A stretch of 32,000 nt of DNA. Origin: Nostoc sp. PCC 7120 = FACHB-418. GTDB taxonomy: Bacteria; Cyanobacteriota; Cyanobacteriia; Cyanobacteriales; Nostocaceae. Position 1 is the stretch's first letter; each line of letters opens with the position of its first letter. The stretch is taken from positions 3,990,001 through 4,022,000 of the forward strand of contig NC_003272.1 of NCBI RefSeq assembly GCF_000009705.1, in the 5' to 3' direction. Under the pieces are notes generated by a model. It did no database searches and was not told the origin of the DNA. It saw nothing but the letters and a program-made list of their open reading frames with translations. A program made the position numbers and the translations under genes. Positions 4,744 to 27,913 of this stretch are shown here, piece by piece.

Positions 4744-7700
4744 ATGAAAACCGCCGAAACCAAAACAACTTCTCATCAGCATCAAGGTAATTCTGCAAAG
4801 CCGTTTTTTGATGCCAATCATGAGCAGAAGTTCTTTGGGGCGGGAATAGTACAGACAAAACTATTTTTTCAACCACAATATACATCTTCAGAATTGGGAA
4901 TTCAGCGTCAGTGCAGGGATTGTGGAATTGAGCAACAAGGACAACCCCTTCCACAGATTCAACGTCAACCAATTTTTGAAAGTGAGAATGTAGAGACACA
5001 ATCTCATTTACAACGCCAAGCTACTACTAGTGATACTGCACCTGTTACCTATCTTCAACCGCAGGAAGAAGCAACACCAGAATTGGAGGAAACATCAGGT
5101 GATTTGGCTTCTCCGGTGATTCAGTCAAAAGGGGATGGAAGTATTCCTCCTGGGGATGGGGATAATTCGTTTCGCAGTGATACGGAAACCCCATTTTTTC
5201 AAGCGAAATTGACAGTAGGTGAGCCTGGCGATCGCTACGAAAAAGAAGCTGAGGCGATCGCTCATCAAGTCGTTTCCCAACCACAACCAAGCCAGCAACC
5301 AACTACTCATCCTGCGGTAACACAGCTTCAGCGCGCCAATAATGAACAGCCAGGCTCACCAATCCCCACCAACTTAGAAAGTCGGCTGCAACAAGCCCAA
5401 AGCAGTGGTACACCTTTAGATACCCAAACCCGCCTGAACATGGAAGCAGGCTTTGGCGCTGATTTCAGCCAAGTACGGGTTCACACAGGACAAGATGCAG
5501 CATCTCTGGCGCGATCGCTAGGGGCGGTGGCGTTCACCACTGGCAATCATATTTTCTTCAACACAAATCAATACCAACCCGCATCCGCGACTGGCAGAAA
5601 TCTCCTGGCTCACGAATTAACACACACTTTGCAACAGGATGCAGCTATACAACGACAGCCAGCAGTATCATCAACCTCCCATACAGTCCAAATGTTGCCG
5701 GAATCTATAATAGGACAAATCAATGATTATGCTCGGTATATTCCTGGATATACATTGTTTACCGTCGTTATCGGCTTTAACCCCCTTACAGGTAACGCAG
5801 TAGAACGCAATGCCAGCAATCTCCTAGAAGGACTCATGGGACTAGTGCCTTTTGGCACGTTTATTTTCGATAAATTGCGGGAGATGGGTATTCTCCAGTC
5901 AGCATTTACTTGGGTAGAGGGAGAACTAGGACGCTTAGATTTATCCGTAGGTAGGATTGAGCGCACTTTAGAAGCCGCTTGGGAAGATATCCACTTGGTA
6001 GCAGGATTTGATGATAATTTGGCGGTATTGCGGCAAAATTTCCAGCAACTTTATCAAGATGTGGAAGCCTTTGCGCGATCGCTCATCAACCAAATCATTC
6101 AATTAATCAAAGATGCAGCCATTAACTTAGCAGAAGGTTTATTAGCTAATAATCAAGCCTGGGCTTTAATTAAAAAAATCCTCAAACATGACCCTCTCAG
6201 GAATCAACCAGTCGCCGCCACCACCGTAGAAATCCTGGAAGACTTTCTCCGCCTCATCGGTAAAGAGCAAGAACTAGAGCAAATGCAGGAACGGGGAACC
6301 CTGGAACAAACAGCAGCTTGGTTAGATACCCAAGTTGGCACATTTATATCATTATTAGGTGAATTAGGCAGTTTATTTACCTCCGCTTGGGATGCAATTC
6401 AACCAGAAAACTTGCCCAATCTCTCGACTAACTTAGAAAGTATTATCAACCAGACTATCGGCTTCCTACAACGGGTATGGGATTTCGCCATCACTGTAGC
6501 AGCCAAAGTACTAGAACTAATCAAACAAGCCCTACTTGGTTGGTTGAGTTCCTTCGCCATCGATATTCCTGGGTATCACTTGCTCACCGTGATTATGGGC
6601 AAAGATATTTTTACTGAGCAATCCGTACCCCGCACAGTGATAAATATCATTCGCGGCTTCATGAGCCTGTTACCAAACGGTGAACAGAAGTTTCAGCAGA
6701 TGCAGGAAACTGGAGTGATTCCTCGCGCCGCCCAACGTATTGAAGCCCTGATGGGTGAATTGGGCATTTCTTGGCCGTTTGTGCAGGAGTTGTTCCTGAA
6801 TATTTGGAACACCCTCACCATTGAAGATATGGTCACCCCCATCGATACATTTATTAGAGTTCTAGAGCAATTCCGCGAACCCCTGAATCGTCTCCTCACC
6901 TTCGTCATTGAAGTAGTCAAGATTGTGCTGGAACTCCTGCTGGAGATAATGAATTTCCCCAGCGATATCATCGGTAATATCATGAATAATGCCTTACAAG
7001 CCTTAGATGATATTCAACAAGACCCCGTAGGCTTTCTACTCAACCTGCTCAGAGCAGTTAAAACAGGCTTTACTAACTTTTTCGACAATATCCTTCAGCA
7101 TTTGCTCAGTGGCGTTACCGATTGGCTCTTTGGTCAAGTACGCAAAGCCGGGATTGAACCACCAACAGAAATTACCCTAGAGTCAATTTTGAATTTAGTA
7201 TTGCAGGTACTAGGCGTTTCGATGGATCGGATCTGGTCGAAACTAGGCGATCGCATCGGTCAAGAAAATGTTGCCCGGATTCGCGGCGCAATTGACCGCC
7301 TATCAGGTATTTGGAACTTTGTCCGCGATGTCCAGCAACGAGGTATCGCCGCTATTTGGGAATACATCCAAACCCAAATTAGCAACCTGTGGAATATGGT
7401 ACTAGAGCAAGTCCGCAGTTGGATTGTATCGCGCATCATTGATCGCGTCATCGCCAAAATTGTCAGTATGCTCGACCCCACAGGTATCATGGCTGTCGTC
7501 AACAGTTTCATTGCCTTCTTTAACGCAGTGCAATCGGCAATTGAGTACTTCCGCGAAATTTTAGAAATCGTAGACTCCTTCGTGGGGATGGTTGCCGAAA
7601 TTGCCAGTGGTAGCATTGATCAAGCCGCACAGTTTTTAGAAAACCTACTAGCGCAAAGTTTACCAGTGGCGATCGGCTTTTTGGCTAATCAAGTGGGTTT

Positions 7701-8766
7701 AGGTAATATTGGCGACAAGTTACAAGAAATTATTGCCGGGATTCAGGGATTGATTGATCAGGCACTAGATTGGCTGATTGATCGGGCTGTGAATCTGGGA
7801 CAGGGATTGCTTAACGCGATCGGACTTGGAGAAGATAATTTAGAAGAAACAACAGGTGAGCCAGATACACCAGAAAGTCAAGCTCTTAAACAAGAAGTTG
7901 CTCTCGCAGTACAACAAGCTTTTGCGGAAGAGCATACAGGTGCAGAGACAGAGAGTATTATCGCTAGAATCCGTTCTCAATTCCAGGCACAAGGATTAGA
8001 CGACCTCTTTTTAGAACCAAACTCTAATGGAACTGGATTTATTCTGTATGCAAAAGCAAGTCCGAAGTATCCACTAGGCATATTCCAAAAAGAAGCAAAT
8101 ATGACACAAGCAGAAAGTGAACAAATGCTGCATTCAGCTATTCGTCTAACGTTAGTTGATTCTATAGGGTTTAATCGTCAAAATATTCCTTTGGTTGAAT
8201 CCACTGAAAAGAACATTGGTAGAGGTGGTGAAGCGTGGCAACCTGAAAATCTTACGACAGAAATTCGTGCAGTTACCTGGAATACCTCTGGAGCAAATCG
8301 TCGAAACAATATCACTCATGCCGAACGTCAATTTATGAATTGGATTACTAATCCTAGTCAAGAAAACGTTTTACTAAAACTGAAAAAGCTGGAAATCCAA
8401 AATATTAATGAAAGTCCTTGTGGAGCTTGTTCAAATCAATTAGCCCATCTAATAAGAGAAATTAGAGAGAAACAAACATCCGCAGGGCAGGTTTATCTAG
8501 AAGAAGCACACCTTTACTGGACAAAACGCCATTTAGGTGAGTCACCAACCAGCGCTAGCGACATTACTATATTGCGAGCAAGCGGTTGGACTTTGCACGC
8601 CCCCCAAAATCAGTTACCGATCCAAGGAATCGAGGACAGTAACTTGCAAGAATTACCTGGAGTATTAGAGTATGAACCAGGATTTAATCCTAATGATAGA
8701 GCAGTCGTTATTCATCCACCTGCGAGTAGTAGTTCTAGGAGCGGTGGAGTAAGAACCAGGGTTTAA
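4744..8766 (+). CDS. DUF4157 (eCIS-associated) protein with a C-terminal deaminase-fold toxin-like domain; candidate CIS cargo or effector
   Basis: 1340-aa ATG ORF. Leader motif TPFFQAKLTVGEPGDRYEKEAEAIAHQV (nt ~5188-5271). DUF4157 core GFGADFSQVRVHTG...AFTTGNHIFF...GRNLLAHELTHTLQQ, with HExxH at nt 5611-5625. Long duplicated helical region. C-terminal HAE (8317-8325) and SPCGAC (8413-8430). Confidence 0.9.
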   Translation: MKTAETKTTSHQHQGNSAKPFFDANHEQKFFGAGIVQTKLFFQPQYTSSELGIQRQCRDCGIEQQGQPLPQIQRQPIFESENVETQSHLQRQATTSDTAPVTYLQPQEEATPELEETSGDLASPVIQSKGDGSIPPGDGDNSFRSDTETPFFQAKLTVGEPGDRYEKEAEAIAHQVVSQPQPSQQPTTHPAVTQLQRANNEQPGSPIPTNLESRLQQAQSSGTPLDTQTRLNMEAGFGADFSQVRVHTGQDAASLARSLGAVAFTTGNHIFFNTNQYQPASATGRNLLAHELTHTLQQDAAIQRQPAVSSTSHTVQMLPESIIGQINDYARYIPGYTLFTVVIGFNPLTGNAVERNASNLLEGLMGLVPFGTFIFDKLREMGILQSAFTWVEGELGRLDLSVGRIERTLEAAWEDIHLVAGFDDNLAVLRQNFQQLYQDVEAFARSLINQIIQLIKDAAINLAEGLLANNQAWALIKKILKHDPLRNQPVAATTVEILEDFLRLIGKEQELEQMQERGTLEQTAAWLDTQVGTFISLLGELGSLFTSAWDAIQPENLPNLSTNLESIINQTIGFLQRVWDFAITVAAKVLELIKQALLGWLSSFAIDIPGYHLLTVIMGKDIFTEQSVPRTVINIIRGFMSLLPNGEQKFQQMQETGVIPRAAQRIEALMGELGISWPFVQELFLNIWNTLTIEDMVTPIDTFIRVLEQFREPLNRLLTFVIEVVKIVLELLLEIMNFPSDIIGNIMNNALQALDDIQQDPVGFLLNLLRAVKTGFTNFFDNILQHLLSGVTDWLFGQVRKAGIEPPTEITLESILNLVLQVLGVSMDRIWSKLGDRIGQENVARIRGAIDRLSGIWNFVRDVQQRGIAAIWEYIQTQISNLWNMVLEQVRSWIVSRIIDRVIAKIVSMLDPTGIMAVVNSFIAFFNAVQSAIEYFREILEIVDSFVGMVAEIASGSIDQAAQFLENLLAQSLPVAIGFLANQVGLGNIGDKLQEIIAGIQGLIDQALDWLIDRAVNLGQGLLNAIGLGEDNLEETTGEPDTPESQALKQEVALAVQQAFAEEHTGAETESIIARIRSQFQAQGLDDLFLEPNSNGTGFILYAKASPKYPLGIFQKEANMTQAESEQMLHSAIRLTLVDSIGFNRQNIPLVESTEKNIGRGGEAWQPENLTTEIRAVTWNTSGANRRNNITHAERQFMNWITNPSQENVLLKLKKLEIQNINESPCGACSNQLAHLIREIREKQTSAGQVYLEEAHLYWTKRHLGESPTSASDITILRASGWTLHAPQNQLPIQGIEDSNLQELPGVLEYEPGFNPNDRAVVIHPPASSSSRSGGVRTRV

Positions 8767-9183: not shown

Positions 9184-10866
9184 TCAAATCCAATCTACTA
9201 TCAGCATATCTTCCATCCAAGGGAATTTAACTATGTTCAGTCCCCACGGTAGACGACTGAGAAGGATATCAATGGATTGACGCTCAATCTGGAGTTTCCA
9301 CGCACCATTATCGTTACGGGTGAGTTTGCCTTCGCGCTGTAAAAAGCCTTCGCGTAGACCGTCGGGGCTGGTATTTTTTAGGGCTTGCCAGTAATCGATC
9401 GCTGTTTGTAATAGATGTTCAGCTTCATTTAAGGCGGTGGTGGGTAAATCAATGTTACAGGCGATCGCTTGATTTAATGGCCAGCCACAAAGTAATTTCG
9501 GTAATACCAACTCATATTCGGGGGCATCGGTTTGGCGAGTTGCTAGGTAATGTAAGAGATAAATTGCCGTTTGCTGTGCTGATTCGTCACGGAAGCTTTC
9601 TTGGTCTACTAGTGCGACATCGTTGAGATATATGTGCAGAAATGGGTGCAGTAGGACTAAGCCAGCTTGATTGATGTAGATACCGGTGATTTCTTCTTCT
9701 GGTGACAAGATGGAAGTTTGCGGGTTGTTTTGAGAATCGATTTGTTGATGTTGGTTGTTTGATTCGGGTGTGGCTTTGGGAGAGGATATTGAGTTTCTCA
9801 ACGCAGAGGGGATCTGAGGTTTACGCAAAGGGTCGTTGAGGTTTGTTGAGGTTGTGGTTTCAGGTGCTGGGGGTAGAATTTGGTTGAGTGTTGTTAGCCA
9901 AGGTGTTCTGGAGTTGGTGGGGATTGTGGCTAGGATAGTTCGCAACCGTTGATATATCCCGGAATCGGGTAGTTGTGTTTGTGATTCATTGGGTTCGGGG
10001 GTGGTAGGAGTAATTTGAGATTGGTTTGGGGATGCTTCGGGTGTGATGGTGGCTTGCTGTTGCCAAGTTTGGACGAGAATAGTTAGCCAGTTGCGTATCC
10101 ACACAGTCTTGGGTAAGGGTCTTGTTGAGGAGCTAGTTTGAGGGATTTCTGCTAGTAGTAACAGCCAAGCTTGTGTGTTGAGGAACTCATAGAAGCGATG
10201 GCATTCAGCCCACTGTAGGCGATCGCCATTTTGATTTAAACTCAACGCTTGGATAATTTGTTGTCCTTGGGTGAGTAGAGTAGACCAATCAATCCAAGTG
10301 GGTTGCAATTGCAAGACTAACTGATGGCAAAAGCTTTCTGGGAACTGGGAAACCAAGCGCTGTCTGACTTGCGGATTTGTGGCTAGCAATTCTCGTAAAG
10401 GTTGCTGCCATGTCGTTTCATTTTGTATGGCTGCTTGCCAACGGGGTATCCACTGTTGCCAGTTATTAGCCTCTACCCACCAAGGTAAGCGACCATACCG
10501 TAAAAAATATAACAATATCTCCCAATCTGCCGCACTCCGATTTTGGCTGAGTATTGGGGAATTTGTCTTAGTAGTTAGGCGATTCGCTAGATAATCTCTT
10601 AGCGTTTGGTTCACAGCACTGATTAATTTAGGTATAAATTCATCTTGAATAAATTGAGGATGAATAACGCCTAAATCTACAACCACTTGATCCAATCGCA
10701 CCACCTCATCAGCTGCTACCAACTGTTCAAAAAGTTGTGCCATTGCTGGTATGCCCTGTTGTTGCAATAAGCGACTCATATCTTCTTGCAAGCTCCAGAC
10801 ATCAGCTAGTTGCCCAGTATTTAGCTCCAGTACGGTTCGTCCGATGATGTGGCGTTGTTGTGTCAT
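9184..10866 (-). CDS. cis14: CIS tape-measure protein (Afp14/Cis14-like)
   Basis: 560 aa with an ATG start; last gene of the operon. The N-terminal block IIGRTVLELNTG...VVRLDQVVVDLGVI and the C-terminal block GIYINQAGLVLLHPFLHIYL match my recollection of the CIS tape-measure family. The middle is low-complexity and P/T/Q-rich. Confidence 0.75.
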   Translation of the reverse strand: MTQQRHIIGRTVLELNTGQLADVWSLQEDMSRLLQQQGIPAMAQLFEQLVAADEVVRLDQVVVDLGVIHPQFIQDEFIPKLISAVNQTLRDYLANRLTTKTNSPILSQNRSAADWEILLYFLRYGRLPWWVEANNWQQWIPRWQAAIQNETTWQQPLRELLATNPQVRQRLVSQFPESFCHQLVLQLQPTWIDWSTLLTQGQQIIQALSLNQNGDRLQWAECHRFYEFLNTQAWLLLLAEIPQTSSSTRPLPKTVWIRNWLTILVQTWQQQATITPEASPNQSQITPTTPEPNESQTQLPDSGIYQRLRTILATIPTNSRTPWLTTLNQILPPAPETTTSTNLNDPLRKPQIPSALRNSISSPKATPESNNQHQQIDSQNNPQTSILSPEEEITGIYINQAGLVLLHPFLHIYLNDVALVDQESFRDESAQQTAIYLLHYLATRQTDAPEYELVLPKLLCGWPLNQAIACNIDLPTTALNEAEHLLQTAIDYWQALKNTSPDGLREGFLQREGKLTRNDNGAWKLQIERQSIDILLSRLPWGLNIVKFPWMEDMLIVDWI

Positions 10867-10880
10867 AGCTTACTGCTTTT

Positions 10881-13800
10881 TCAACGGGGCTTAATTACAG
10901 AAGGTGGGGTTGAGCCAACTTGTTTAGATGATGAGTAAGTCCAACCGACGATTAACATGAAAATGGCAGTACTCATGGCTAGTAGCTGGGGTAGTTTGAT
11001 TTTGGTGATGATTTCTCCTCGGTTGAGGGGAAAGAGGTTTTGTATGCGTGTGAATAGGTTATCTGGGTTGGTGCTACGGGATGGGCTAGTGTCGGTGTCA
11101 GCGTCGATAACCCGGATGATAACTTTGATGGTAGCTCCTTCTAGGCGATCGCCATTTACTTCTCTGATAGCTTGTGCTTGAATCTCATGGATACCTATAC
11201 TCGGTTGCCAGTCATCAGGCATCCGGTAAGGTGCAGTGTTGGCGGTGAGTGCTTGGCGGCTGCCATTGGGTTTGGTGTAGGTGAAAATTACACTATTAAC
11301 CTTTTCTGGCACAGTCATCGCCTCAAAGGTGTACTGGTTATTAGGATTGAAGTCTGAGAGATTGAAGGTGCGATCGCCATCCAAATTAGTACTATTTATT
11401 ACTTCATTATTACTAATTGCCAGTAAATTTACTGCACGAACTTCAGGATGAGGAATCGGGTTTTCTGTCGGCGCATCTCCGCTATCAGGGTTAGAGGTAT
11501 CTTCAACGTCTCTCACTGGCACTTCTGGTGGTGGGACGATGGTAACTCGGCGTTCCGTGTTATTGCTACAGCCTTGATTGCTGATTGTATATCTCAGTGT
11601 AATAACTTTTTCTTCCTCATCACCCAAGTTCACTGCACTGGGATTGAATTGTGGGGGAGTTGTAGGGCTAATTACATCTGCTGTGATATCTTCTTCACCG
11701 TCAAAGGCTTGGAAAGTTCCGCCTAGTTGTGTAGCGATCAGCCCTACAGGCGGATCATTATTGGTGAAGGTGTCCCGGTTTCCTGTTGATAATCGGAAGT
11801 TGGCATTGGGTACAGCAAAAATCCTCAGTTCTTGGGTGAACTTATTACTACAGCCTTGGTTGCTAATACTGTATTCCAATGTAATGACTTTTTCTCTGGC
11901 TACACCCAAGTTAACTGCACTTGGGTCGAACTGTGGGGGTGTTGTCAGGCGATTAATGACATCTGCCGAGATATCTTCTGCACCATCGCGCACTTGGAAA
12001 GTCCCGCCCGGTACTCTGGCTATCAGGTCTACGGGTTCATCATTACTACAGAATCTGGTTTTACCTTGCCCAACTTGGAAGGTAGCATTGGGTACAGCAA
12101 AAATCGTTATATCTCGGCTTAACTCATTGGTGCAGCCTTGGTCACTGGTGATGGTATACACCAAGGTAATAACTTTTTCTGTTGCTCCTCCCAAATTAAC
12201 AGCACTGGGGTTAAATTCTTGGTTATTAATGACACTGGCGGAAATATCTGTTTCACTATCAAAAGCCCGGAAATTGCCGCCTGGTTGTGTGGCTCTGAGG
12301 GTTACGGGGTTTTCGTTACTACAGAAATTTGTTTTGATTTGGAAACTGGCATCTGGTAAGGGATAGACGGTAACGCTCAGGGTGTCGTAGCTGCTTTCAA
12401 CAACGTAGGTAAAAGTGATGGCTGTTTCCGAAGTAATATCGTCGGTAATGCGGCTGGGTTGGAAATAATATTTGCCGTCTGCAAAAAAGCTACCTTCGCC
12501 TTTCAGTGTGCCACCTGTCGGGTCAAGAATAAATTCATAGCGAGTTTCATCGCCTGCACAGAAAGTAGTTCTATCTAGCAACACGATGGGGCGAGGCTGA
12601 GTTAGTACATAACTAACAGTGGGGGTCTTGCTGCTAAAACGATAGGGTAGGCAAAAATCGCCAACAACGATATCTTCACGGTTGAGTAATTCTCGACTAG
12701 TCGCTAGTTCCTGGGGTGAACCTGGGGGTAAGGAAGCGTATTTCTTGATTACCTCGGTGCGGGCTTGATAAGTAGGATCGCGATCGGCACTTAGCAGGTT
12801 TCTCACTAATTCCCGTCCATCGACGTAGACCAAAACGAATGTACCGCCTTTCGGCACACCTCCCAAGTGTTCCATCCCCGGATTATTTTGTGCGAATTTA
12901 TGGAATAGTTGCAATTCCATGATCTGTGCCAAACGTTGCTGATAAGCTGTCATCAGCCCCTTGAGTTCAAAATAATTGAGCGTATCGGCGGCTAGGCGAT
13001 CGCCCATCCTCAACTCCAGTCGATTGACGCGGATGGAGGATTCTGGAACATCCCGCAGCAAACTATAGAGGGTTTCAAAGTCTTGAAACTCTGGTTGGTT
13101 GATAATGGGGCTATTACCCTCAAAATTAACAGTAAAGAAATTCAGCGAAATAAAGCTAATGTCTGCCGTCCCTCTATTTGCTGGTAAGTCCAGTTCATCA
13201 GCTAAGGAAAATCGCAGATAATAGCTGAGGGGGTTGTTGGCTGACTCAGGTTCTACCCCATAAGTAATTTTCCCCAAAGGCAGACAAGCCAATAAATCTC
13301 CAATAATGCGCTCCTGTTCTTGGGTCAGACTGTCGCCTGATAACCCAGAAAAGTTAATTACTGTCTCAAAACGCGCAATGCGAATACCTGCGGCGTTACG
13401 CAGATATAGGCGATAGCTGTCACCGCTTTCCTTGACAAATTCATAAGCTTCTTTAACGCTGGCTCTAGCCACAATGGGGTTAAATAGTTGGTCACTTTTA
13501 ATTTCCGCCAAACTAGTCTTGTCAAAGAAAACTCGTTTGAGTGTGTAAAGAAAAACATTCCGTGACCAGCTTTCCTCATATCTTTGCCAAAGTTTTGCAA
13601 AGGTATCTTTGATGCGTCCAAAGTCTGCATTCAAATCATCGAACTGACCAGAAATATTGATATCTTGAAAACTTTGCAGATTGCCAATCTTCAGGGTAAT
13701 GACATCAAAAGCTAAATTGTAGCGCTGCTGATAGTCGAGAATCCGTTGCAAAGCCGTGGCGTTGGCTTCCCCAATATGTCCTTCAATGCGGTAAAAAGAA

Positions 13801-15311
13801 TAGTCATCTAAACGGTGCAGTAAGTCAGAATTGGGGGTGATATTGGCGTTGTTGGGATAAAAGTAAGCCGGATGGGACTGACTGCGCCCTTTACGGTAAG
13901 TATCATAACTCCAGTATTGATACAACTGTGGATAATTGAGGTAATAAGGAATTGCCTGTTGGCTCAAGGTTGCAGCACGGTCTTTACTGGGGGTGATTTT
14001 TAGGGGCGTGTCATAAAAGGGTAACAGATAAAAACTATCCGCAGCGCACAGACGTACGAGGCGATCGTAAAGGAAGCGTACTTGTTTGACACGTAACTGA
14101 TTGCCGTTATAAATGGGGGATTGGCTAAAATTGCTCCGATATGGAGAATTTAGGGCATATACCTCTGGCTTTTGGTTGGGAAGTGGGACTAGTCCCAGCA
14201 TGAGGAACTTGGGAAAGCGTCGGGTATCTGGTGTAGCGTCGTCCATCAAGTCAAAAGCCGACTCTGCTAATTCCCGAAAAGCAGATACTAACTGACTGAG
14301 GTAGTCATAGAAGTATTGTAAGGCGTACTGGGCTTCGATTTGGGAAATAGGCGATCGCCTATTTTCTGCCGACGAGCCAGACACAATATCGCTGAGACGT
14401 TGATTAAGTAGGGTTTTCAACCCGGTGAAATCAGAGGGTGCAGGATTAAAAGACGAGAAAAAAGGCGAAAACAGCCGGAAAAGATTTGGGAATGTACGAT
14501 CAATCTCATCAATTGCTTGCAGACATACTTGTTGGTAGCCTTTAAGAAAGGCATCGTAGTCAACAATATTCGATAAACGAATGACAGGTGGTGTCTCCAG
14601 GGTATAACCGAAGCGTCGCACTTGGGGAAAGAAATTCTGGAAGAAAGAAGATTGAGCCTGGAATATGTCATTAATGCTGAAGTCTCGCCACTGTTGGGGT
14701 AAAGGCTCTCTGGAAAACCCTTGTTGCAGCAAAGCCTCAGCGCTCAACTTCTCCGGTACAGAACGGGGTAAGAGAAAATAGCGTAGGCGGAAATTCCTGT
14801 CTTTACCTGTATCATCACAATCGAGTAAACAAGAGTCCCGTTGCTGATCCTGAAGTTCATATACTACTACTAACGTCTGGTCAGCCAGAAACCTAGCAAA
14901 AGCATTCTCATCTGGTAAATTCTTGAGCGCTAACCGATTATTCCCTTCCTGTTCAAAGAGTTCTACAAGTTGATCAGTTGATGCGGCTGTTTGTTCTTCA
15001 CTAGGCGCGAACAAAGCCGAGGGTACAGACACTCCACTTTGATAATGAGTTAATTTTGTTTCCGCCAGAGAAATTATATATCCCTCAGAAGTAATACCAC
15101 ACCCTGGCGCAACAACTATGTTCACATCCCCCGGCTGATAGATGCTACTCACCTCCATCCCAGCCACAATTCCCATACCAATCAGATAAACACGAGTTAA
15201 CCGATTCTGCTCATCAAGATAGGTAACAACACGATTCAGGTCTTTATTAGTCAAAACCTGATTAGGCGTAAAAATAGGATAACTGTTAGGGATGGTAATG
15301 GTAGTAGTCAC
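10881..15311 (-). CDS. Large CIS-associated distal or baseplate-peripheral protein with 3 tandem Ig-like repeats, a C-terminal beta-sandwich-like domain and a C-terminal transmembrane anchor
   Basis: The track ORF extends to 15332 through a TTG inside a dispersed repeat. A GTG at 15311, preceded by GGAG with 9-nt spacing, is the more likely start. Three ~94-aa repeats lie at nt ~11540-12375. Hydrophobic helix LLAMSTAIFMLIVGWTY at nt 10935-10985, 17 residues from the C-terminus. Confidence 0.85.
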   Translation of the reverse strand: MTTTITIPNSYPIFTPNQVLTNKDLNRVVTYLDEQNRLTRVYLIGMGIVAGMEVSSIYQPGDVNIVVAPGCGITSEGYIISLAETKLTHYQSGVSVPSALFAPSEEQTAASTDQLVELFEQEGNNRLALKNLPDENAFARFLADQTLVVVYELQDQQRDSCLLDCDDTGKDRNFRLRYFLLPRSVPEKLSAEALLQQGFSREPLPQQWRDFSINDIFQAQSSFFQNFFPQVRRFGYTLETPPVIRLSNIVDYDAFLKGYQQVCLQAIDEIDRTFPNLFRLFSPFFSSFNPAPSDFTGLKTLLNQRLSDIVSGSSAENRRSPISQIEAQYALQYFYDYLSQLVSAFRELAESAFDLMDDATPDTRRFPKFLMLGLVPLPNQKPEVYALNSPYRSNFSQSPIYNGNQLRVKQVRFLYDRLVRLCAADSFYLLPFYDTPLKITPSKDRAATLSQQAIPYYLNYPQLYQYWSYDTYRKGRSQSHPAYFYPNNANITPNSDLLHRLDDYSFYRIEGHIGEANATALQRILDYQQRYNLAFDVITLKIGNLQSFQDINISGQFDDLNADFGRIKDTFAKLWQRYEESWSRNVFLYTLKRVFFDKTSLAEIKSDQLFNPIVARASVKEAYEFVKESGDSYRLYLRNAAGIRIARFETVINFSGLSGDSLTQEQERIIGDLLACLPLGKITYGVEPESANNPLSYYLRFSLADELDLPANRGTADISFISLNFFTVNFEGNSPIINQPEFQDFETLYSLLRDVPESSIRVNRLELRMGDRLAADTLNYFELKGLMTAYQQRLAQIMELQLFHKFAQNNPGMEHLGGVPKGGTFVLVYVDGRELVRNLLSADRDPTYQARTEVIKKYASLPPGSPQELATSRELLNREDIVVGDFCLPYRFSSKTPTVSYVLTQPRPIVLLDRTTFCAGDETRYEFILDPTGGTLKGEGSFFADGKYYFQPSRITDDITSETAITFTYVVESSYDTLSVTVYPLPDASFQIKTNFCSNENPVTLRATQPGGNFRAFDSETDISASVINNQEFNPSAVNLGGATEKVITLVYTITSDQGCTNELSRDITIFAVPNATFQVGQGKTRFCSNDEPVDLIARVPGGTFQVRDGAEDISADVINRLTTPPQFDPSAVNLGVAREKVITLEYSISNQGCSNKFTQELRIFAVPNANFRLSTGNRDTFTNNDPPVGLIATQLGGTFQAFDGEEDITADVISPTTPPQFNPSAVNLGDEEEKVITLRYTISNQGCSNNTERRVTIVPPPEVPVRDVEDTSNPDSGDAPTENPIPHPEVRAVNLLAISNNEVINSTNLDGDRTFNLSDFNPNNQYTFEAMTVPEKVNSVIFTYTKPNGSRQALTANTAPYRMPDDWQPSIGIHEIQAQAIREVNGDRLEGATIKVIIRVIDADTDTSPSRSTNPDNLFTRIQNLFPLNRGEIITKIKLPQLLAMSTAIFMLIVGWTYSSSKQVGSTPPSVIKPR
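11540..12375 (-). repeat. Three tandem ~282-nt coding repeats (Ig/PKD-like, Cys-containing modules)
   Basis: Repeat boundaries are marked by 'tttgctgtacccaatgc' (reverse complement, near 12104 and 11822), giving a 282-nt period. Protein repeats: FAVPNA.F......F..N..PV.L.A...GGTFQ..DG.EDI.ADVI....PPQF.PSAVNLG...EKVITL.Y.ISNQGCSN. Confidence 0.85.
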
Positions 15312-15380
15312 GTCGCTTCGCTCCAAATTCAAAATTCAACTTTTCTCAACTCTTCTCAACTCTTCCACCCAGCAATGTTA

Positions 15381-18300
15381 TTAATCATTAGCAGTTCCTA
15401 ACGCAGTCTGATTGAGGATAGCGGGATTATTATCAGCACTACTTTCTTCGCAATCATGTAACGTAGCTTTGGGGTACACATTCCGCAGTTGAGGCAGGAT
15501 TTTCAACAGACGGTTAAGCGTCCCTGTCAAATCACAGGCGGCGTTTTCGCAACTCTCCAGCGCCAATTGCTCTAACCAGTGACGATAAGCAAGCTCAAAA
15601 TCTCGCATTTGGCGGACATTCACCCAGGCAATTTTCAGAGCGATGTGTGCTGGAGCCTCTAGACGCAGAGTGCGTTCAACAAATCGGCGGAAAGGAATAT
15701 CACGAAAGCGTTGCGGCCAGTAGGGTAAAACGATTGTCACCCAAAAAGAATAAGGATCTGTTCTCGCTAAAAGATAGGGGTCGTCTGGTTCTGTATTGAC
15801 ATCCTCCGGCGTTACCAAAATGGGTAAAAAGCCATCGCCGGCTGTTAAGTCGGGGAGCTTGGTTCGGGGACGTAAAAGAATATGCTCTAGGAGATGGAAG
15901 CCTTCGTCATTGCTGTATTTTTGAATTTCTGCGATCGCTGCGGTGCGTTCTTCTCTACTGTTGTAATATTGCGCCGCAAAAATTTCGTCTTTACCTTCAT
16001 TGGTCAGTTCCCAGCCGTAAACACCATCATCACTATCAATCAGTCGGAAGTTCTCTTCATCCTGAGCCAGTTCCATCAAGGTGTTACCCTGTTCCCATGC
16101 GATATCCTCACTGGTGTAACGCTGTGTTCCTTGCAAAATCAACTGGTTGTCTGGGTTGTAAATTTGACTTATGTATGCTAATGAATCTAATGAATTGGTA
16201 CTAATCCTTAAACGAGCCGTGCGAACCAACAATAATAAATGCTCAATCGCTGCATCCCTTTCTGCTTCTGATGTATAGGTTTGGGTATGGATAGCGGCTA
16301 CACTGTTAGTATCGCGGGGACGGCTCAAAATCCGAAAGCCAAACTCCTTATTAGTTGTTGTAGGATTAATTACCCCTGTTTCAAATAGTGTACCTAAAAC
16401 ATCTTGGTAAAAGCGATCGCGGGCTGTAGTCTCATCACCATATATTTGGATACTTTGCAGTATAGTTGTTTCCTGGCGGTCTACGAGGCGATAACGGTAG
16501 CCAGAGGTGGGTGTTGTTGCTGCTTCTATAACTAAAAATGGTTCAAGAGCATTTAGGCGCTGGAAGGTAAGCAAGCGATCGCTTTCTGTGGTTGTTACTG
16601 CTAAAAGTTTGCCTGTCTTGTCGGTAATTCCTAAACTATAGGTCTGTCCAGTGTGATCCTTGGCTGGGCTGAGGTAGCGGTTGAGGTAGCGGAGGTTTTC
16701 GGCGAACTCACTAGCAGCTTGCCAAGCCAAATACTCTGTTGCGTATGAACTAATACCGCGTAATAAAGTTTGACTATTAGTAATGTCGTTGATAACAAAG
16801 ACATAACCATTGGTGATAGTCTCTATGGCAAACTTGTATTGATTCTGATTCGCTTGAATGTGAGTTAACCAGCGTTGTAAGCTTAGTTCTCTTTCTAACT
16901 CAGTTGGGAAATGGTGAGTATATTCACTAAGGAGACTGCCTTGATGATCAACTAAGCCGTAGCCGTAATAGGTGAATTTTTGCGGAGTCGTCCCTTGATC
17001 CTGACCTAACGTAATATTGCGGTAATTCTGCACGTCTTGAATTAGCCTCAAGCTAATAACCCCAGCGTCTACGGCTTCGGTGCGGGAAAAATAGCGTTGT
17101 ACACCAGTAAAGGTAATTACGCCAGAGTTGAGGGGAATTTGTAAGCGGAAGGAATATAAGTCCTCATCTGTCGGCTGGGTGATAACTAAATTTTGCAGGG
17201 CGGTATCATCTAGCTGGGATAACTGCGTTAATAAACTTTGTAGCAGTGGTTCTAAAGCTGCGGCTCGTTCTTTAGTGGAGGGAAAAAAGCGATCGCTCCT
17301 AACTATACTCTGATTTTGGGTATCTAATATTTCCCAACTGTAATGATAATAATACTTATATGAAAGTCGTTTGTAAAAGTTAGGGTGTAGGGCAAATAGC
17401 AATAATTTATCTTGGTCAGCCTGGGCTTGTTCTGTGGTGGCGTATCTCTGTTTACTAGTTAAGGTTAAGTCATCAGAACTAAAATCTATACTTAAAAATA
17501 AATTACGACTATCTTTATCTACACGATAGTGGCTGAGGTGACGACGACGCACATCATCAATCCCCAGCAACCGCAACACCCGCTTTTTGAAACCCGCTAC
17601 ATTATCGGTATCCCAGACAGCATGACAATCATAGTAATTGTAAGCCCGGAAGCGATCGCGGCTTAAGGTGGGATAGTCTTGTAAAAATTGGGCTTTGTCG
17701 TGAATAATTTCGGTTTCTTGGGTCGCCTTGTTGTTACGGGTGGCAAACATCTGATAATTCAACAAGACATAATCACTAAAAGACTCAGAAAAACGAGCTA
17801 GTAAATGATCTAAAAAACGATTACGGCGATCGCGATAAGTTTCCGGTGCTTCATCCAACACATCAAGATAGTTATCAGGGATAATTTTTTCTATTTCAGG
17901 AAAATCCAGCTTTTGGGTAAAGTAAGTACGCTGCTTCTCCTGAAGACGGGTAGCATAATCGTTTTGTTGGGGTTGAGTCACATCGACTTCCCAAGAAAAC
18001 AAGTCACGAATATGAGAGAGTTGAGCAAGGTAGCTTGCTAATAACTGATCAAAAAAGACGAGATAAGCTTTTAGTTGTAAAGCCTGAGCTTTGCGTAAAG
18101 CTGGGACAGTTGGTGGTAGTCCGTCTTCACTGATGCCGTAGGTCGTGGGAAAATCATGATGAATAGAATAATGGTCGGCTAAGTCGTAATAACTCCCCTT
18201 CGGAACAGGAATATCCAACTCATCTCTGTCGCGGATGGTTTTGATATAAGCTGCTTGTTGTTCATAATAGCGGCGTTCCACTTCTTCCTCATCTACACCG

Positions 18301-19388
18301 ATGGGTAATTCACTTTTAAAGAAGTTGATTTTTGATGTTTTCACCCCCAATACCGGACGATATTGATCAGTTAGTTGGAGATACCAAGGGTGTCCTTGAG
18401 TCTGACGTAAGCCGTTGATATAGTTAGCGATACTCAGTTTCTTGATAGCCGAGACACCAGGAACTTGCAGAATTTCCTGATATAAATCTGATGTATGCAG
18501 AATAGTCGGTAAAGTCAAAGCTTCTAATTCATCGGTATCAATAAAGCCATGACTTTTATATAGTCTATTCTCGCCATCAAAAACCGAAGGTCTACCAGCA
18601 AAGATTTCTGCTGGACTTTTACCTTTGTCTAGTAATTCCTGTAGGGTATAAAATTTGAGACGTGGTGATAAGAATTGTTGTATTCGCACGTAGATATTTA
18701 CCAACACATCTTCCGCATCAGCATTAGTTTCTAGTTGAATATCAGCGCAAATTCCAATTTCTTCTTCACCCAAAATCACGATATCTGCAAAATCTTCACA
18801 GAGATTGCGACTATCACACAATACTTGTTTGACTTCATCCAGCGTATCACCCCAAGAACGGTCAATTTGTCCGCAGGCATTTTTGCGGTAATCTTGGTCA
18901 AGATCCAACCTGACTGTATATAAACCACGGGGATTTAAAGTTTTAGATTCTGCTGTCGGAGGGTTGTACTGTAAACGTTTGTCTGAAAAATTTACATAAA
19001 TATTTGGCTCATAACTCGTCACCTTTTGCAGCCAAGCATTCCGCACCCCAGGAATATCGATTAATCGTTTGCGTACATCTAATTCAGTGACAGGATTACA
19101 AGTCAGGACTGCATCAGGGGTAAAAAAATTATTCTCCCGACTATTCCCATCCTGGGGATTCAACGCTAACAGGTCAGCAATATCTAGATTGTTGCGATAG
19201 CCTAAATCTGTAATCGCATAGCAAAGCACCTCCAGAATCGTGACACCAGGATCATGCAGGTTGTAATCAGTCCAGATTTTACCCGATAAAGCTTGTAGGT
19301 GTGTAATGCCAATATCCCGCAGAGTTTGAAAATTCAGATAAGGCGGGAAATCAGGTTTTTGCTTCGATATACTAAGATATTCCGGCAT
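15381..19388 (-). CDS. cis12: Large baseplate wedge protein (Afp12/Cis12 position)
   Basis: 1335 aa with an ATG start. N-terminal motif WTDYNLHDPGVTILEVLCYAITDLGYR is typical of phage and CIS baseplate-assembly proteins. Sits downstream of the baseplate-J gene in the operon. Confidence 0.75.
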   Translation of the reverse strand: MPEYLSISKQKPDFPPYLNFQTLRDIGITHLQALSGKIWTDYNLHDPGVTILEVLCYAITDLGYRNNLDIADLLALNPQDGNSRENNFFTPDAVLTCNPVTELDVRKRLIDIPGVRNAWLQKVTSYEPNIYVNFSDKRLQYNPPTAESKTLNPRGLYTVRLDLDQDYRKNACGQIDRSWGDTLDEVKQVLCDSRNLCEDFADIVILGEEEIGICADIQLETNADAEDVLVNIYVRIQQFLSPRLKFYTLQELLDKGKSPAEIFAGRPSVFDGENRLYKSHGFIDTDELEALTLPTILHTSDLYQEILQVPGVSAIKKLSIANYINGLRQTQGHPWYLQLTDQYRPVLGVKTSKINFFKSELPIGVDEEEVERRYYEQQAAYIKTIRDRDELDIPVPKGSYYDLADHYSIHHDFPTTYGISEDGLPPTVPALRKAQALQLKAYLVFFDQLLASYLAQLSHIRDLFSWEVDVTQPQQNDYATRLQEKQRTYFTQKLDFPEIEKIIPDNYLDVLDEAPETYRDRRNRFLDHLLARFSESFSDYVLLNYQMFATRNNKATQETEIIHDKAQFLQDYPTLSRDRFRAYNYYDCHAVWDTDNVAGFKKRVLRLLGIDDVRRRHLSHYRVDKDSRNLFLSIDFSSDDLTLTSKQRYATTEQAQADQDKLLLFALHPNFYKRLSYKYYYHYSWEILDTQNQSIVRSDRFFPSTKERAAALEPLLQSLLTQLSQLDDTALQNLVITQPTDEDLYSFRLQIPLNSGVITFTGVQRYFSRTEAVDAGVISLRLIQDVQNYRNITLGQDQGTTPQKFTYYGYGLVDHQGSLLSEYTHHFPTELERELSLQRWLTHIQANQNQYKFAIETITNGYVFVINDITNSQTLLRGISSYATEYLAWQAASEFAENLRYLNRYLSPAKDHTGQTYSLGITDKTGKLLAVTTTESDRLLTFQRLNALEPFLVIEAATTPTSGYRYRLVDRQETTILQSIQIYGDETTARDRFYQDVLGTLFETGVINPTTTNKEFGFRILSRPRDTNSVAAIHTQTYTSEAERDAAIEHLLLLVRTARLRISTNSLDSLAYISQIYNPDNQLILQGTQRYTSEDIAWEQGNTLMELAQDEENFRLIDSDDGVYGWELTNEGKDEIFAAQYYNSREERTAAIAEIQKYSNDEGFHLLEHILLRPRTKLPDLTAGDGFLPILVTPEDVNTEPDDPYLLARTDPYSFWVTIVLPYWPQRFRDIPFRRFVERTLRLEAPAHIALKIAWVNVRQMRDFELAYRHWLEQLALESCENAACDLTGTLNRLLKILPQLRNVYPKATLHDCEESSADNNPAILNQTALGTAND

Positions 19389-19397
19389 GGAGAAATA

Positions 19398-19424
19398 GGG
19401 TGTAGGGGTGCAAGGGTATAGGGG
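19398..19424 (+). repeat. G-rich short tandem repeat (GGGTGTAGGGGTGCAAGGGTATAGGGG), a G-quadruplex-type motif
   Basis: Four G3-4 tracts separated by 4-5 nt, on the plus strand (the template strand of the operon), 10 nt from the cis12 start codon. Confidence 0.6.
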
Positions 19425-19488
19425 AAAAACTAATAACTACTAAATTTTTGCGTTCCTCCGGGCTAGTTTGTGTTTAAAAATTTTAAAT

Positions 19489-19953
19489 CTATGTTGTTCC
19501 AGCTAATATATGAACTGTTGATTGTCCCAACAACCAAAAAAACATAATTCCTAATCCGATAAATAATATAGGAATAAATCTAGCGAGTAATTGCAAACGG
19601 ATTTCCATTTGCTTTTGATATTCAGTAAACTCTTGGTGGAGAGTTTCTAATTCATGTTGAAGCTTATCTACTTTTTGTTCTAACTCCTTGAGTAAAGATT
19701 TCCAGTCAGTGCTGATACCTGGTGTTTGCTCCTCCTTGGCGCAGATTTCGTTCTCAGACTGCATTTCCCATAGGCTGTGATTGTAGTAGACTACATCGCC
19801 TTTTTGGTAGGTTTGCCCTGGTTTCCAAATTCCATGAAAGCGATCATCTCGCTTATTTAGTGTCGAGTCGATTAACTCTACAAAATAAGTTTCGGATAAA
19901 CGACTTTTGTTTTTAAATAGACTTTTTAATTCGTTACGTTTTCGCAAATTCAT
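19489..19953 (-). CDS. Tail-anchored membrane protein: CBM5/12-like motif, coiled coil and C-terminal TM helix
   Basis: 154 aa; the ATG lies 2 nt after the baseplate-J stop. WKPGQTYQKGDVVYYNHSLWE (nt ~19762-19836), heptad-like LLKELEQKVDKLQHELETLHQEFTEYQKQ, and TM helix FIPILFIGLGIMFFWLLG (nt 19525-19578). Confidence 0.75.
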   Translation of the reverse strand: MNLRKRNELKSLFKNKSRLSETYFVELIDSTLNKRDDRFHGIWKPGQTYQKGDVVYYNHSLWEMQSENEICAKEEQTPGISTDWKSLLKELEQKVDKLQHELETLHQEFTEYQKQMEIRLQLLARFIPILFIGLGIMFFWLLGQSTVHILAGTT

Positions 19954-19955
19954 AT

Positions 19956-23651: not shown

Positions 23652-23699
23652 TGAATCGGGAGTGGGGGAAAAAGAGAAGTGTTGACCAATTACCAATGA

Positions 23700-24149
23700 C
23701 TAATTACCACTTCCTTCTTGTAGGTAGAAGGGGTAGACAAAGTTAAAGCGGGAATTTGTGCTGATGATGGTGCAATCTACAATGATTTGAATTAAGCCTT
23801 GGGCATCGGCTTCGTTAACTGCTGATGGATTTTGGCGATCGCTTATTCCTTGTTGAATATCTAGCTTGTTTAGGCGGATACGAGGCTCGTAATATAAAAT
23901 TGCCGTCCGTACCAGTTCTTTAATATTGCTAGCTACTGTAGGGCTAAGGCTTTCAAAGAGTAAGTCTTGCAAATTACAACCATAGTTGGGCTGCATTACT
24001 CGCTCACCCAAATTGGTAGACAAGAGAATTTGCAGGCTCTCTCGAATATCGTCTTCTGCACTGACAAGTCGGACACTCCTGGCTTTTTTCTCAAAGGTAG
24101 GGGGAAAACCCCAACCAGTACCTAAATAAGCGTTGCTCTCGTCGTCCAT
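23700..24149 (-). CDS. cis9: GPW/gp25-family baseplate wedge protein (Cis9)
   Basis: YLGTGWGFPP...DDIRESLQILLSTNLGERVMQPNYGCNLQDLLFE is the gp25 lysozyme-like signature. The likely ATG at 24149 is preceded by GGAGG inside the end of the PAAR gene (GGAGGCTGATATG); the track ORF begins at a TTG at 24161. Confidence 0.9.
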   Translation of the reverse strand: MDDESNAYLGTGWGFPPTFEKKARSVRLVSAEDDIRESLQILLSTNLGERVMQPNYGCNLQDLLFESLSPTVASNIKELVRTAILYYEPRIRLNKLDIQQGISDRQNPSAVNEADAQGLIQIIVDCTIISTNSRFNFVYPFYLQEGSGN

Positions 24150-24150
24150 A

Positions 24151-24453
24151 TCAGCCTCCAATGAGTACGGTAAATTCTCCCAAAACTATCGAGCCTCCGT
24201 GTGCTGTTGTATCACCCAAACGGGCAGCAGGTTTGCCCCCAATCATCACAGTTGAAGAACCAAGAACGATCGCATCAGGAGGCCCGACGCAGACACAACT
24301 ATCACCAAGGACAGCCGCAGGTAAACCCCGAATCAAAACTGTAGGTACACCCGGCCCCACAATCGCCCCCCCAACATGAGGGATAGGAGGAAGACCAGGA
24401 GTTTGCATTGGACAAATGTGCATATCAGTAAGACGAGCGGCGGGTTTTCCCAT
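24151..24453 (-). CDS. cis10: PAAR-domain spike-tip protein (Cis10)
   Basis: 100 aa with three PAAR-type motifs (KPAARLTD, LPAAVLGD, KPAARLGD) and a G/V/P-rich beta-cone composition. Confidence 0.95.
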   Translation of the reverse strand: MGKPAARLTDMHICPMQTPGLPPIPHVGGAIVGPGVPTVLIRGLPAAVLGDSCVCVGPPDAIVLGSSTVMIGGKPAARLGDTTAHGGSIVLGEFTVLIGG

Positions 24454-24470
24454 AAGATTCCTTTTGGAGT

Positions 24471-24506
24471 AGGGGCAGGGGGAGCAGGGCAGGGGAGGTG
24501 GGGAGG
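24471..24506 (+). repeat. G-rich STRR-like run (AGGGGCAGGGGGAGCAGGGCAGGGGAGGTGGGGAGG), a G-quadruplex-type motif
   Basis: Five G3-5 tracts with 2-4-nt loops in the 85-nt VgrG-PAAR spacer. They are on the plus strand, so the operon mRNA is C-rich here. Confidence 0.6.
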
Positions 24507-24538
24507 ATAAACTTCAGACCTCAGCAGCAGTCAACACC

Positions 24539-27009: not shown

Positions 27010-27075
27010 AGTTTATAAATAGAAGGCAGTCCCGATGAAACAGGTTTCACAGCCAAACAGGAAAGATGTCTTTTT

Positions 27076-27110: not shown

Positions 27111-27197
27111 TTCAACTCAGGAGGTAGGAGAGAAAAGCCAGTTACTATCGGGGTTTTAAAGTTTTGCATTTTACGTTTAATTATGTCTACCGACTTA

Positions 27198-27902: not shown

Positions 27903-27913
27903 AGGAAATTAGT

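Follow-up and report, generated by a model that had tools for sequence, protein, structure and literature searches.

A predicted AID/APOBEC-like deaminase warhead on Alr3311, a cargo candidate of the thylakoid-anchored contractile injection system of Anabaena sp. PCC 7120

The stretch of DNA analysed here, 32,000 nucleotides of the Nostoc (Anabaena) sp. PCC 7120 genome (NC_003272.1, positions 3,990,001 to 4,022,000; hereafter the window), holds a complete contractile injection system (CIS) cluster and, beside it on the opposite strand, the gene alr3311, whose product is the subject of this study. By Pfam matches, gene order and gene sizes, the minus-strand genes at 9184..31839 encode the CIS tape-measure protein (CIS_TMP), Cis19, Cis12, Cis13, Baseplate_J/Cis11, gp25, PAAR, a VgrG-like spike, CIS_tube, two gp19 tube proteins, the sheath and a Pvc16_N cap. 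In order and size, they correspond to all3313-all3327 of Anabaena sp. PCC 7120, which Weiss et al. 2022 (PMC8894136) describe as a thylakoid-anchored CIS (tCIS), the matches including All3316 with its 154 aa and transmembrane segment at 122-154, the all3324 tube and the all3325 sheath. In that work, alr3311 and alr3312 are listed as "putative effector genes", with DUF4157 the only domain mentioned; mass spectrometry of CIS preparations picked up both proteins, neither of which was resolved in the cryo-electron microscopy map, and the tubes were filled as well as empty. In a literature search, we found alr3311 named in this one study alone.

Alr3311 was matched by exact-sequence look-up to BAB75010.1, with the identical entries BAY68940.1 and MBD2170512.1 from Nostocaceae, and its public name is merely "eCIS core/DUF4157 domain-containing protein". 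The protein consists of a leader, an eCIS_core domain whose HExxH motif reads HELTH (aa 290-294, nt 5611-5625), a long helical carrier and a C-terminal domain (Table 1); no convincing transmembrane segment was found in it. A sequence-only reading of the window, made without database searches, had placed a zinc-deaminase signature in the C-terminal domain, and we found it exactly as claimed: in the 1340-aa open reading frame (ORF) at 4744..8766, HAE occupies aa 1192-1194 and SPCGAC aa 1224-1229, the blocks HAERQFMNW, ESPCGACS, EAHLYW and ILRASGW all occur as quoted, and the resemblances of the latter two to ARLY and L..AG are reproduced by a hidden Markov model alignment to APOBEC3G. The range that it gave, 8100-8766, encloses the domain as delimited by family conservation, nt ~8215-8634. 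Read from the window, the codons are cat-gcc-gaa for HAE and agt-cct-tgt-gga-gct-tgt for SPCGAC; E1194 is separated from S1224 by 29 residues and from P1225 by 30. The chance expectation of H[AV]E-x24-36-PCxxC is 1.2e-6 for a protein of Alr3311's length and composition, and when the whole window is translated in six frames, the pattern turns up a single time. Alr3311 has four cysteines only, at positions 57, 60, 1226 and 1229; the first two belong to CRDC, a CxxC pair within the N-terminal leader, which is of low complexity (nt 4912-4923, plus strand).

The domain belongs to a family that is seldom met but reaches far across the bacteria. A HMMER scan of 1.84 billion cluster representatives, with the window's domain and its one close relative as the query, gave 131 proteins at E<=1e-3, 35 of them at E<=1e-10. 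The matched region corresponds to Alr3311 aa ~1158-1297, the profile matches mostly beginning near aa 1158, and in nearly all of the 131 representatives, proteins of 400-1500 aa, the domain sits at the extreme C terminus; HAE...PCxxC, with a spacing of 22-36, is present in most of them. A family alignment was built of 85 domain sequences. In it, E1194, C1226 and C1229 are invariant, H1192 is conserved in 95%, A1193 in 94%, S1224 in 91% and P1225 in 95% of the sequences, and L1233 and W1282 in at least 90%; further motifs are GG (1161-62), TWNT (1178-81), N-x-S/T before and Q-F after HAE, W1259 and AGW-x-L-x-AP. We also scanned one genome per species for the degenerate DNA motif W[NS]T...NxSHAE...SPCxxC and obtained 27 loci, each of which proved to encode a family member (E 1e-18 to 1e-39), from Actinomycetota, Chloroflexota, Bacteroidota, Cyanobacteria (Crocosphaera), Verrucomicrobiota, Planctomycetota, Bacillota and alpha-, beta- and gamma-Proteobacteria. 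The genome of Alr3311 itself is not among the 27 loci, though window positions 8275-8430 fit the motif; its species may be represented there by a different or a masked genome. At the protein level the motif recovers ~40% of the family representatives. With 27 loci scattered over many phyla and a motif of that sensitivity, the family is, on the evidence of these scans, rare yet widely distributed, spanning at least eight phyla. Other searches gave little: a homologous-protein search with the domain or the family alignment returned one and three matches, without Alr3311 itself, single-sequence searches with the domain found nothing in the PDB (phmmer), NCBIfam or plasmids (tblastn), and the sole tblastn match among phages, a dCMP deaminase, was non-significant.

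Profile comparisons consistently point to one branch of the deaminases. Taken alone, the window's domain scores 24.1 bits against SNAD4 of Pfam, 23.9 against APOBEC_N, 23.4 against NAD1 and 21.6 against APOBEC2, and more weakly against NAD2, APOBEC4_like and APOBEC1, all of them models of the AID/APOBEC clade. Across the 85 aligned members, matches at E<=1 are found for 81 with APOBEC_N (best 7e-11), 81 with SNAD4 (best 4.3e-09), 80 with NAD1 (best 6.8e-09) and 76 with APOBEC2 (best 2.8e-08); for dCMP_cyt_deam_1 the number is 37 (best 0.002), for OTT_1508_deam 12 (best 0.006), for XOO_2897-deam 10 (best 0.0017) and for DddA-like a single one (0.002). About 35 of the 85 members reach E<=2.3e-5, roughly the gathering score of APOBEC_N. 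A profile search of the PDB with the family alignment returned APOBEC3C (A3C) at E=3e-7, then A3G, A3F, A3B, A3H and APOBEC2; TAD2, ADAT2 and T4 dCMP deaminase appeared merely at E 0.3-0.7, and DddA and SsdA gave no match. These alignments span strand 2 (SVVSWKTG vs evvtWnts), HAE, which falls on the HAE of A3C, SPCxxC, where SPCGAC falls on SPCPDC of A3C, and the following sequence to ARLY...LRSLAQAG, and they end at strand 5. The deaminase-clan matches anticipated by the sequence-only reading were thus found, with Pfam as well as with PDB sequences, and specifically in the AID/APOBEC branch.

The predicted structure agrees. An AlphaFold2 model computed from the family alignment has a predicted local distance difference test score (pLDDT) of 87.7 and a predicted template modelling score (pTM) of 0.79; it replaces a model from a two-sequence alignment that had a pLDDT of 42.7 and gave noise in Foldseek (e.g., DOT1L), and was discarded. 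The order of elements is strand 1, strand 2, the helix with HAE, a short helix, strand 3, the long helix with PC, strand 4, a 12-residue loop, helix 4 and strand 5; in model numbering, the strands and helices lie at 13-16 (strand), 26-29 (strand), 44-52 (helix; HAE 43-45), 66-70 (strand), 78-97 (helix; PC 76-77), 105-109 (strand), 122-130 (helix) and 134-136 (strand). Five strands, with HAE and PCxxC at helix N termini, are what the sequence-only reading had named as the thing to look for in such a model. Judged from this model, the fold is that of the helix-4 division of deaminases, and helix 4 between strands 4 and 5, after an extended loop, is a feature of the AID/APOBEC clade. In a Foldseek search of the PDB, ranks 1-24 are all AID/APOBEC structures (A3H, A3G, A3C, APOBEC1, AID, APOBEC2 and A3F), with probabilities of 0.57-1.0 that reach at least 0.9 for ranks 1-23 save rank 18 (0.82), and the top 50 matches include neither DddA nor SsdA. 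In the viral structures of BFVD, the best named matches are phage dCMP deaminases, with probabilities of 0.80-0.97 and E of 0.015-0.04.

Two hallmarks of the superfamily of zinc-dependent nucleic-acid/nucleotide deaminases (CDA fold, CL0109), [HC]xE in helix 2 with PCxxC in helix 3 about 25-35 residues apart and a three-layer alpha/beta/alpha fold, are found in the sequence and its model, and the deaminase interpretation of the sequence-only reading is supported by both. By profile and predicted fold alike, the closest known relatives of the domain are the DNA-mutating AID/APOBEC enzymes of animals, and of all characterised deaminases it is the eukaryotic AID/APOBECs to which the family comes nearest, their matches being the best and essentially the sole significant ones in Pfam, PDB sequences and Foldseek. 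The likeness to the vertebrate enzymes includes H-A-E and S-P-C-x-x-C in register, the helix-4 topology with a long loop joining strand 4 to helix 4, and similarities in strand 2 (W-x-T), strand 4 (..LY/..YW) and helix 4/strand 5 (L..L..AG.). On the other hand, the Alr3311 domain has ~140 residues against ~180-190, is bacterial, and is fused to a CIS effector carrier.

Membership of other deaminase classes was considered and rejected. The OTT_1508-like class (PF14441) has no match to the window's domain and matches in the stated 12 members only, and the sequence before CxxC is QNINESP, not GxxK. The DddA/SCP1.201-like class (PF14428) was set aside on the presence of helix 4 and its single matching member, and XOO_2897 and MafB19-type membership on the Pfam results of the 85 members. 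DddA (SCP1.201/BaDTF1) and SsdA (MafB19-like/BaDTF2) are T6SS (type VI secretion system) deaminase toxins that mutagenise or kill recipient bacteria; delivery by a contractile machine is what the predicted Alr3311 toxin would share with them. They belong to the C-terminal-hairpin division, in which strands 4 and 5 are antiparallel and helix 4 is lacking, are delivered by the T6SS and have dedicated immunity proteins; Alr3311 differs from them in these respects.

Against PHROG, aa 310-1100 of Alr3311 match tape-measure families (phrog_1272 at E=7.9e-8, phrog_58 at 1.5e-6 and phrog_4200 at 2.4e-6, the range extending to 4e-4). This carrier contains a duplication, aa 310-700 and 700-1100 cross-matching in relatives, with IPGY..L.TV..G near aa 333 and 606; no Pfam model describes it, though it occurs in more than 100 proteins with differing toxin C termini. 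Its second half, aa 700-1100, is present in 55 of the 131 family representatives, as is eCIS_core in 17, and among the 27 loci of the motif scan, 22 have the carrier in the same ORF and 13 have eCIS_core in the same or an adjacent ORF. A search with aa 700-1100 alone returned 110 proteins, and the C termini borne by the same carrier include HNH_4, AHH, Endonuclea_NS_2 (many), the papain-like Tox-PL-2 and Tox-REase-7, as well as another type of deaminase, the BURPS668_1122-type Toxin-deaminase. As far as these architectures tell, the carrier is constant and the warhead variable, which is the logic of polymorphic toxins, and the deaminase stands in the warhead position. The "PVC-metallopeptidase" toxins described by Zhang et al. 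2012 match this architecture, and Geller et al. 2021 (PMC8213781) report that the linkers from DUF4157 to toxin domains can exceed 1000 aa.

The genomic setting ties the family to injection systems. The tie to the CIS that the sequence-only reading had drawn for Alr3311 is borne out by the eCIS_core domain and by the tape-measure gene at 9184..10866 on the minus strand, from which only a 106-aa ORF, alr3312, separates it. CIS clusters end with the relative's gene in all five cases that were looked up (P0003, P0006, P0009, P0012 and P0015), and nearby are sheath, gp19, CIS_tube, spike, PAAR, gp25, Tail_P2_I and AAA ATPase genes and often a separate eCIS_core protein, so that six of the six contexts examined in full, the window included, adjoin CIS genes. 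Alr3312, publicly a "hypothetical protein", has no match in Pfam or NCBIfam and is described as containing DUF4157 in Weiss et al. 2022 (PMC8894136). Its leader, PFF...Q.KL.VG.P.D.YE.EA.A.A..V, matches Alr3311 aa 136-176 (BLASTP E=3e-9) and other eCIS_core proteins. We read Alr3312, from its sequence, as a putative second cargo or adaptor and not an evident immunity protein. Downstream of family members, the neighbour met most often (6 of 30 loci) is a further eCIS_core/leader protein, the class in which its leader motif places Alr3312, and the downstream neighbours in the 30 loci are only eCIS_core/leader proteins and CIS components. In a Bacteroidota metagenome-assembled genome (JBCBFT010000064.1, locus L025), a second protein with eCIS_core and carrier adjoins the deaminase-bearing one, and at L025, L021, L005-L007 and L009 proteins with eCIS_core, the carrier or both are encoded in tandem, at least two per locus. 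These tandems suggest that CIS loci may hold arrays of alternative cargo toxins.

Several characterised effectors resemble Alr3311 in part. EAT11 (AmyniDRAFT_7433) of Amycolatopsis nigrescens, a DUF4157 protein with a deaminase, kills E. coli and yeast (PMC8213781); like Alr3311, it has an N-terminal DUF4157, a C-terminal predicted deaminase and an extracellular CIS (eCIS) locus. Its deaminase subfamily is unstated, the tables of Geller et al. give it no Pfam deaminase match, and its toxicity is experimental, whereas that of Alr3311 is predicted. The same supplementary tables contain a single APOBEC_N match in an eCIS operon, listed as a "eukaryotic domain" (PMC8213781). Tme (BN159_7576) of Streptomyces davawensis joins DUF4157 to a tape-measure-like region and an endonuclease, and it associates with spike and baseplate proteins (PMC11126660); it shares with Alr3311 the long ORF, the N-terminal DUF4157, the tape-measure-related region and a C-terminal warhead acting on nucleic acid (in Alr3311, a predicted one), but is ~2250 aa long with predicted transmembrane helices and an EndA-like endonuclease, where Alr3311 has the deaminase instead. 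RS14790 of Micromonospora eburnea (2026, PMC13277306), a Sle1-type CIS effector with a cytidine-deaminase-like C terminus, is toxic in E. coli. It, too, is a CIS effector that resembles tape measures and ends in a deaminase-like domain; its DUF4157, however, is on a partner protein and an immunity protein, RS14785, is encoded downstream, whereas in Alr3311 DUF4157 is in the same chain and the search for an immunity gene yielded no candidate. Iyer et al. 2011 had already described fusions of the PVC metallopeptidase with deaminase toxins, among them cyanobacterial examples from the OTT_1508 clade. The statement of the sequence-only reading that it knew of no characterised deaminase payload in a cyanobacterial phage-tail-like injection system went too far as a claim of novelty, since DUF4157-deaminase CIS toxins were predicted in 2011/2012 and toxicity was shown in 2021 and 2026; our literature search found no paper linking APOBEC-like domains to CIS effectors.

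Bacterial AID/APOBEC-like toxin domains have been described on RHS/SpvB toxins (Iyer 2011; Krishnan 2018). B3gp45 of the Wolbachia prophage WOCauB3 and PSEBR_m1207 of Pseudomonas brassicacearum, cited as likely sources of the eukaryotic AID/APOBECs (Iyer 2011), are likewise bacterial C-terminal deaminases with AID/APOBEC proteins as their best matches. By description, they have SpvB/RHS (Tc-type) delivery and keep the two C-terminal helices, and B3gp45 also keeps the Trp before CxxC; the Alr3311 family is without these helices and this Trp and sits on eCIS_core and the carrier.

Since the closest relatives of the domain are the AID/APOBEC DNA mutators, the tCIS cargo is probably a nucleic-acid-editing toxin. 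We consider it likely, from the sequence and the model, that Alr3311 is a modular tCIS cargo toxin whose minimal AID/APOBEC-like deaminase warhead deaminates cytosines in the polynucleotides of a recipient. The leader and the eCIS_core/DUF4157 domain with its HExxH would dock the protein at the spike/baseplate end, DUF4157 being known to bind the spike complex in Streptomyces CIS (PMC11126660, PMC13277306), and the ~800-residue tape-measure-like carrier would probably lie in the tube lumen. Sheath contraction would expel Alr3311 together with tube and spike, and the metallopeptidase-like HExxH domain may then release the warhead. H1192, C1226 and C1229 are predicted to bind zinc and E1194 to act as the proton shuttle; the warhead would deaminate cytosines in recipient polynucleotides, most likely single-stranded DNA, and the C-to-U lesions would lead to mutagenesis and death.

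A number of observations weigh against this proposal or limit it. The window's domain falls just under every Pfam gathering cut-off (APOBEC_N, 23.9 vs 25 bits), and the Foldseek E values are modest (9.5e-4 to 0.09), with query-normalised TM-scores (TMq) of 0.35-0.49. The features of the AID/APOBEC clade listed by Iyer et al. 2011 (PMC3239186) are a strand-3 Trp, SxS before PCxxC, an extended loop from strand 4 to helix 4, a bulky hydrophobic residue, usually Met, with which strand 5 ends, and a pair of additional helices beyond that strand, which bear a D-aromatic motif and a Trp (Iyer 2011; Krishnan 2018). The Trp and first Ser of SWS are absent, the window reading NESPC and no Trp being conserved in the 85 sequences within strand 3 or beyond it. 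Helices 5 and 6 are absent as well: nothing helical follows strand 5 in either AlphaFold2 model, both of which are of low confidence in this tail, family conservation stops ~10 residues past strand 5, and the tails after the conserved Trp have a median length of 29 aa and 13% Pro. Strand 5 itself reads W-T-L-H-A-P (family consensus W.L.AP), with a Leu at the equivalent region, the structural equivalence being approximate. As helices 5/6 and the SWSPC Trp are missing, the substrate preference of the APOBECs is not transferable to the domain, and in view of the missing clade features we call it AID/APOBEC-like, without counting it as a true member of the classical family. No recurrent immunity-like gene emerged when ORFs within 2.5 kb downstream were clustered over the 30 loci, PVC-type toxins being usually without immunity genes according to earlier observations (Iyer 2011; Zhang 2012). 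Finally, the tCIS is intracellular, so the deaminase may act in producer or sister cells instead of a foreign cell.

This last point leads to a different explanation, that an active deaminase stays in the producing filament as a self-directed effector of death or hypermutation, fired by the tCIS under stress. Within the cell, the tCIS is held by the thylakoid membranes, and it has been associated with the formation of "ghost cells" under stress (Weiss et al. 2022, PMC8894136), to which such an effector would be linked; in Streptomyces, Tme and Sle1 affect the producer's own development (PMC11126660, PMC13277306), and no immunity gene lies beside the toxin. Missing immunity genes are, however, typical of PVC/eCIS toxins thought to be aimed at distant organisms (Zhang 2012), in many phyla the relatives lie at the 3' end of eCIS-type clusters (sheath, tube, spike, PAAR, gp25, AAA ATPase), and Weiss et al. 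(PMC8894136) also propose injection from ghost cells into predators. We regard an action confined to the producer as rather unlikely.

The warhead could also be an RNA editor, causing C-to-U or A-to-I deamination of target tRNA, rRNA or mRNA instead of DNA mutation. The helix-4 division includes the TadA/Tad2 tRNA deaminases (Iyer 2011, PMC3239186), reflected in the weak profile matches to TAD2 and ADAT2 (E 0.3-0.5); APOBEC1 edits mRNA, the top Foldseek match is an APOBEC3H-RNA complex, and many polymorphic toxins act on tRNA or rRNA (Zhang 2012). The affinity to AID/APOBEC in sequence and structure is nevertheless orders of magnitude above that to TadA/ADAT2, and RNA editing seems to us decidedly unlikely. 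A deaminase of free nucleotides or nucleosides (dCMP, dCTP, cytidine) or of another small molecule, unbalancing nucleotide pools, is very improbable: the weak dCMP_cyt_deam_1 matches of 37 of the 85 members, the phage dCMP deaminases of BFVD and the non-significant phage match of tblastn speak for it, but the dCMP-type matches are far weaker than those to AID/APOBEC, the relevant model segment has 14 residues and holds none of the four cysteines of Alr3311, and the sister warheads on the same carrier are mostly polynucleotide nucleases. That HAE...PCxxC arose by chance or is a relic, and that the C terminus is merely the non-catalytic plug of a DUF4157 protein with a structural role, as the sub-threshold Pfam scores and the empty single-sequence PDB search might suggest, is the only one of the four alternatives that is effectively excluded from the sequences at hand, given a chance expectation of ~1e-6, catalytic residues invariant over at least eight phyla, a confident fold model and a slot that holds bona fide toxin domains elsewhere.

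Table 1. Coordinates of alr3311, its predicted parts and the neighbouring genes in the window.
Feature	Position (nt)	Strand	Remarks
alr3311 (BAB75010.1), 1340 aa	4744..8766	+	CIS effector (predicted): leader, eCIS_core, tape-measure-like carrier, deaminase warhead
Alr3311 leader motif PFFQAKLTVGEPGDRYEKEAEAIAHQV, aa 149-176	5188..5271	+	5' of eCIS_core; common to Alr3312 and other eCIS_core proteins
eCIS_core / DUF4157 / "PVC-metallopeptidase" domain, aa 224-300	5413..5643	+	Pfam PF13699, E=1.9e-31
Alr3311 carrier, aa 310-1100	5671..8043	+	Helical, internally duplicated; remote similarity to phage tail tape measures
Alr3311 linker/pre-domain, aa 1101-1157	8044..8214	+	Kept in closest relatives only (P0003, P0005 match)
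AID/APOBEC-like zinc deaminase domain, aa ~1158-1297	~8215..8634	+	Predicted toxin warhead; limits by family conservation
H1192-A-E1194	8317..8325	+	Predicted zinc ligand His and catalytic proton-shuttle Glu; N terminus of helix 2
S1224-P-C1226-G-A-C1229	8413..8430	+	Predicted second and third zinc ligands; N terminus of helix 3
Alr3311 C-terminal tail, aa 1298-1340, plus stop codon	8635..8766	+	Pro/Ser-rich; no counterpart of APOBEC helix 5/6
alr3312 (BAB75011.1), 106 aa	8809..9129	+	Leader motif only; second putative cargo or adaptor
all3313, CIS tape-measure protein	9184..10866	-	Pfam CIS_TMP PF19268, E=3.6e-129
tCIS structural genes all3314-all3327	10881..31839	-	Pfam matches; order and sizes as in Weiss 2022

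Some further observations concern the tCIS genes and the spaces between them. Cis19/all3314 (10881-15332, minus strand), of 1483 aa, has three tandem repeats of ~95 aa, FCSN[ED].PV.L.A..PGG.F...D...DI.A.VI, with no Pfam match, and a 262-aa ORF opposite them (11578-12366, plus strand) is probably their shadow. Cis13/all3316 (19489-19953, minus strand) has a sub-threshold CBM_5_12 match at aa 43-66 (24.2 bits, cut-off 26.2), as has Cis12/all3315 (15381-19388, minus strand; 1335 aa) with DUF1508 at aa 1121-1161. Short tandem repeats with units of 7-10 nt (AATTCAA, ATTTTGA, TCAACTCTTC and CCTACACC) lie between genes at 1737-1768, 1959-1989, 15336-15365 and 27076-27110. They resemble the short tandemly repeated sequences that are common in heterocystous cyanobacteria. 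Promoter and terminator scans of the window, its base composition and a search of Rfam were uninformative.

Overall, what is new here is the assignment of a deaminase to Alr3311, a cargo candidate of the structurally characterised Anabaena tCIS, which sequence profiles and the predicted fold support, and the delineation, from sequence comparison, of a family linked to CIS in which truncated AID/APOBEC-like domains sit on tape-measure-like carriers; as a general principle, it was already established that DUF4157 CIS effectors can bear deaminase warheads. One may go further and see in the family an undescribed, CIS-dedicated bacterial clade of minimal (~140 aa, without helices 5/6) AID/APOBEC-like polynucleotide cytosine deaminases in at least eight phyla, which among prokaryotes would be the nearest kin of the eukaryotic enzymes and a plausible donor pool for them, with the delivery of a DNA mutator as the role of the tCIS and a compact scaffold for base editing as a by-product. 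This wider picture is tentative, and we think it doubtful that it holds as a whole; if true, the idea of a donor pool would follow from the injection of the clade by phage-tail-like machines into other cells, possibly those of eukaryotic grazers. Whatever its fate, the compact deaminase domains of the family may be of use in base editing. The Anabaena tCIS is among the best structurally characterised CIS, and the assignment of a warhead to Alr3311 makes the question of its cargo experimentally approachable. The family, linked to CIS in every context examined, adds material to the idea of Iyer and Aravind that immune mutators may have their origin in bacterial toxins.

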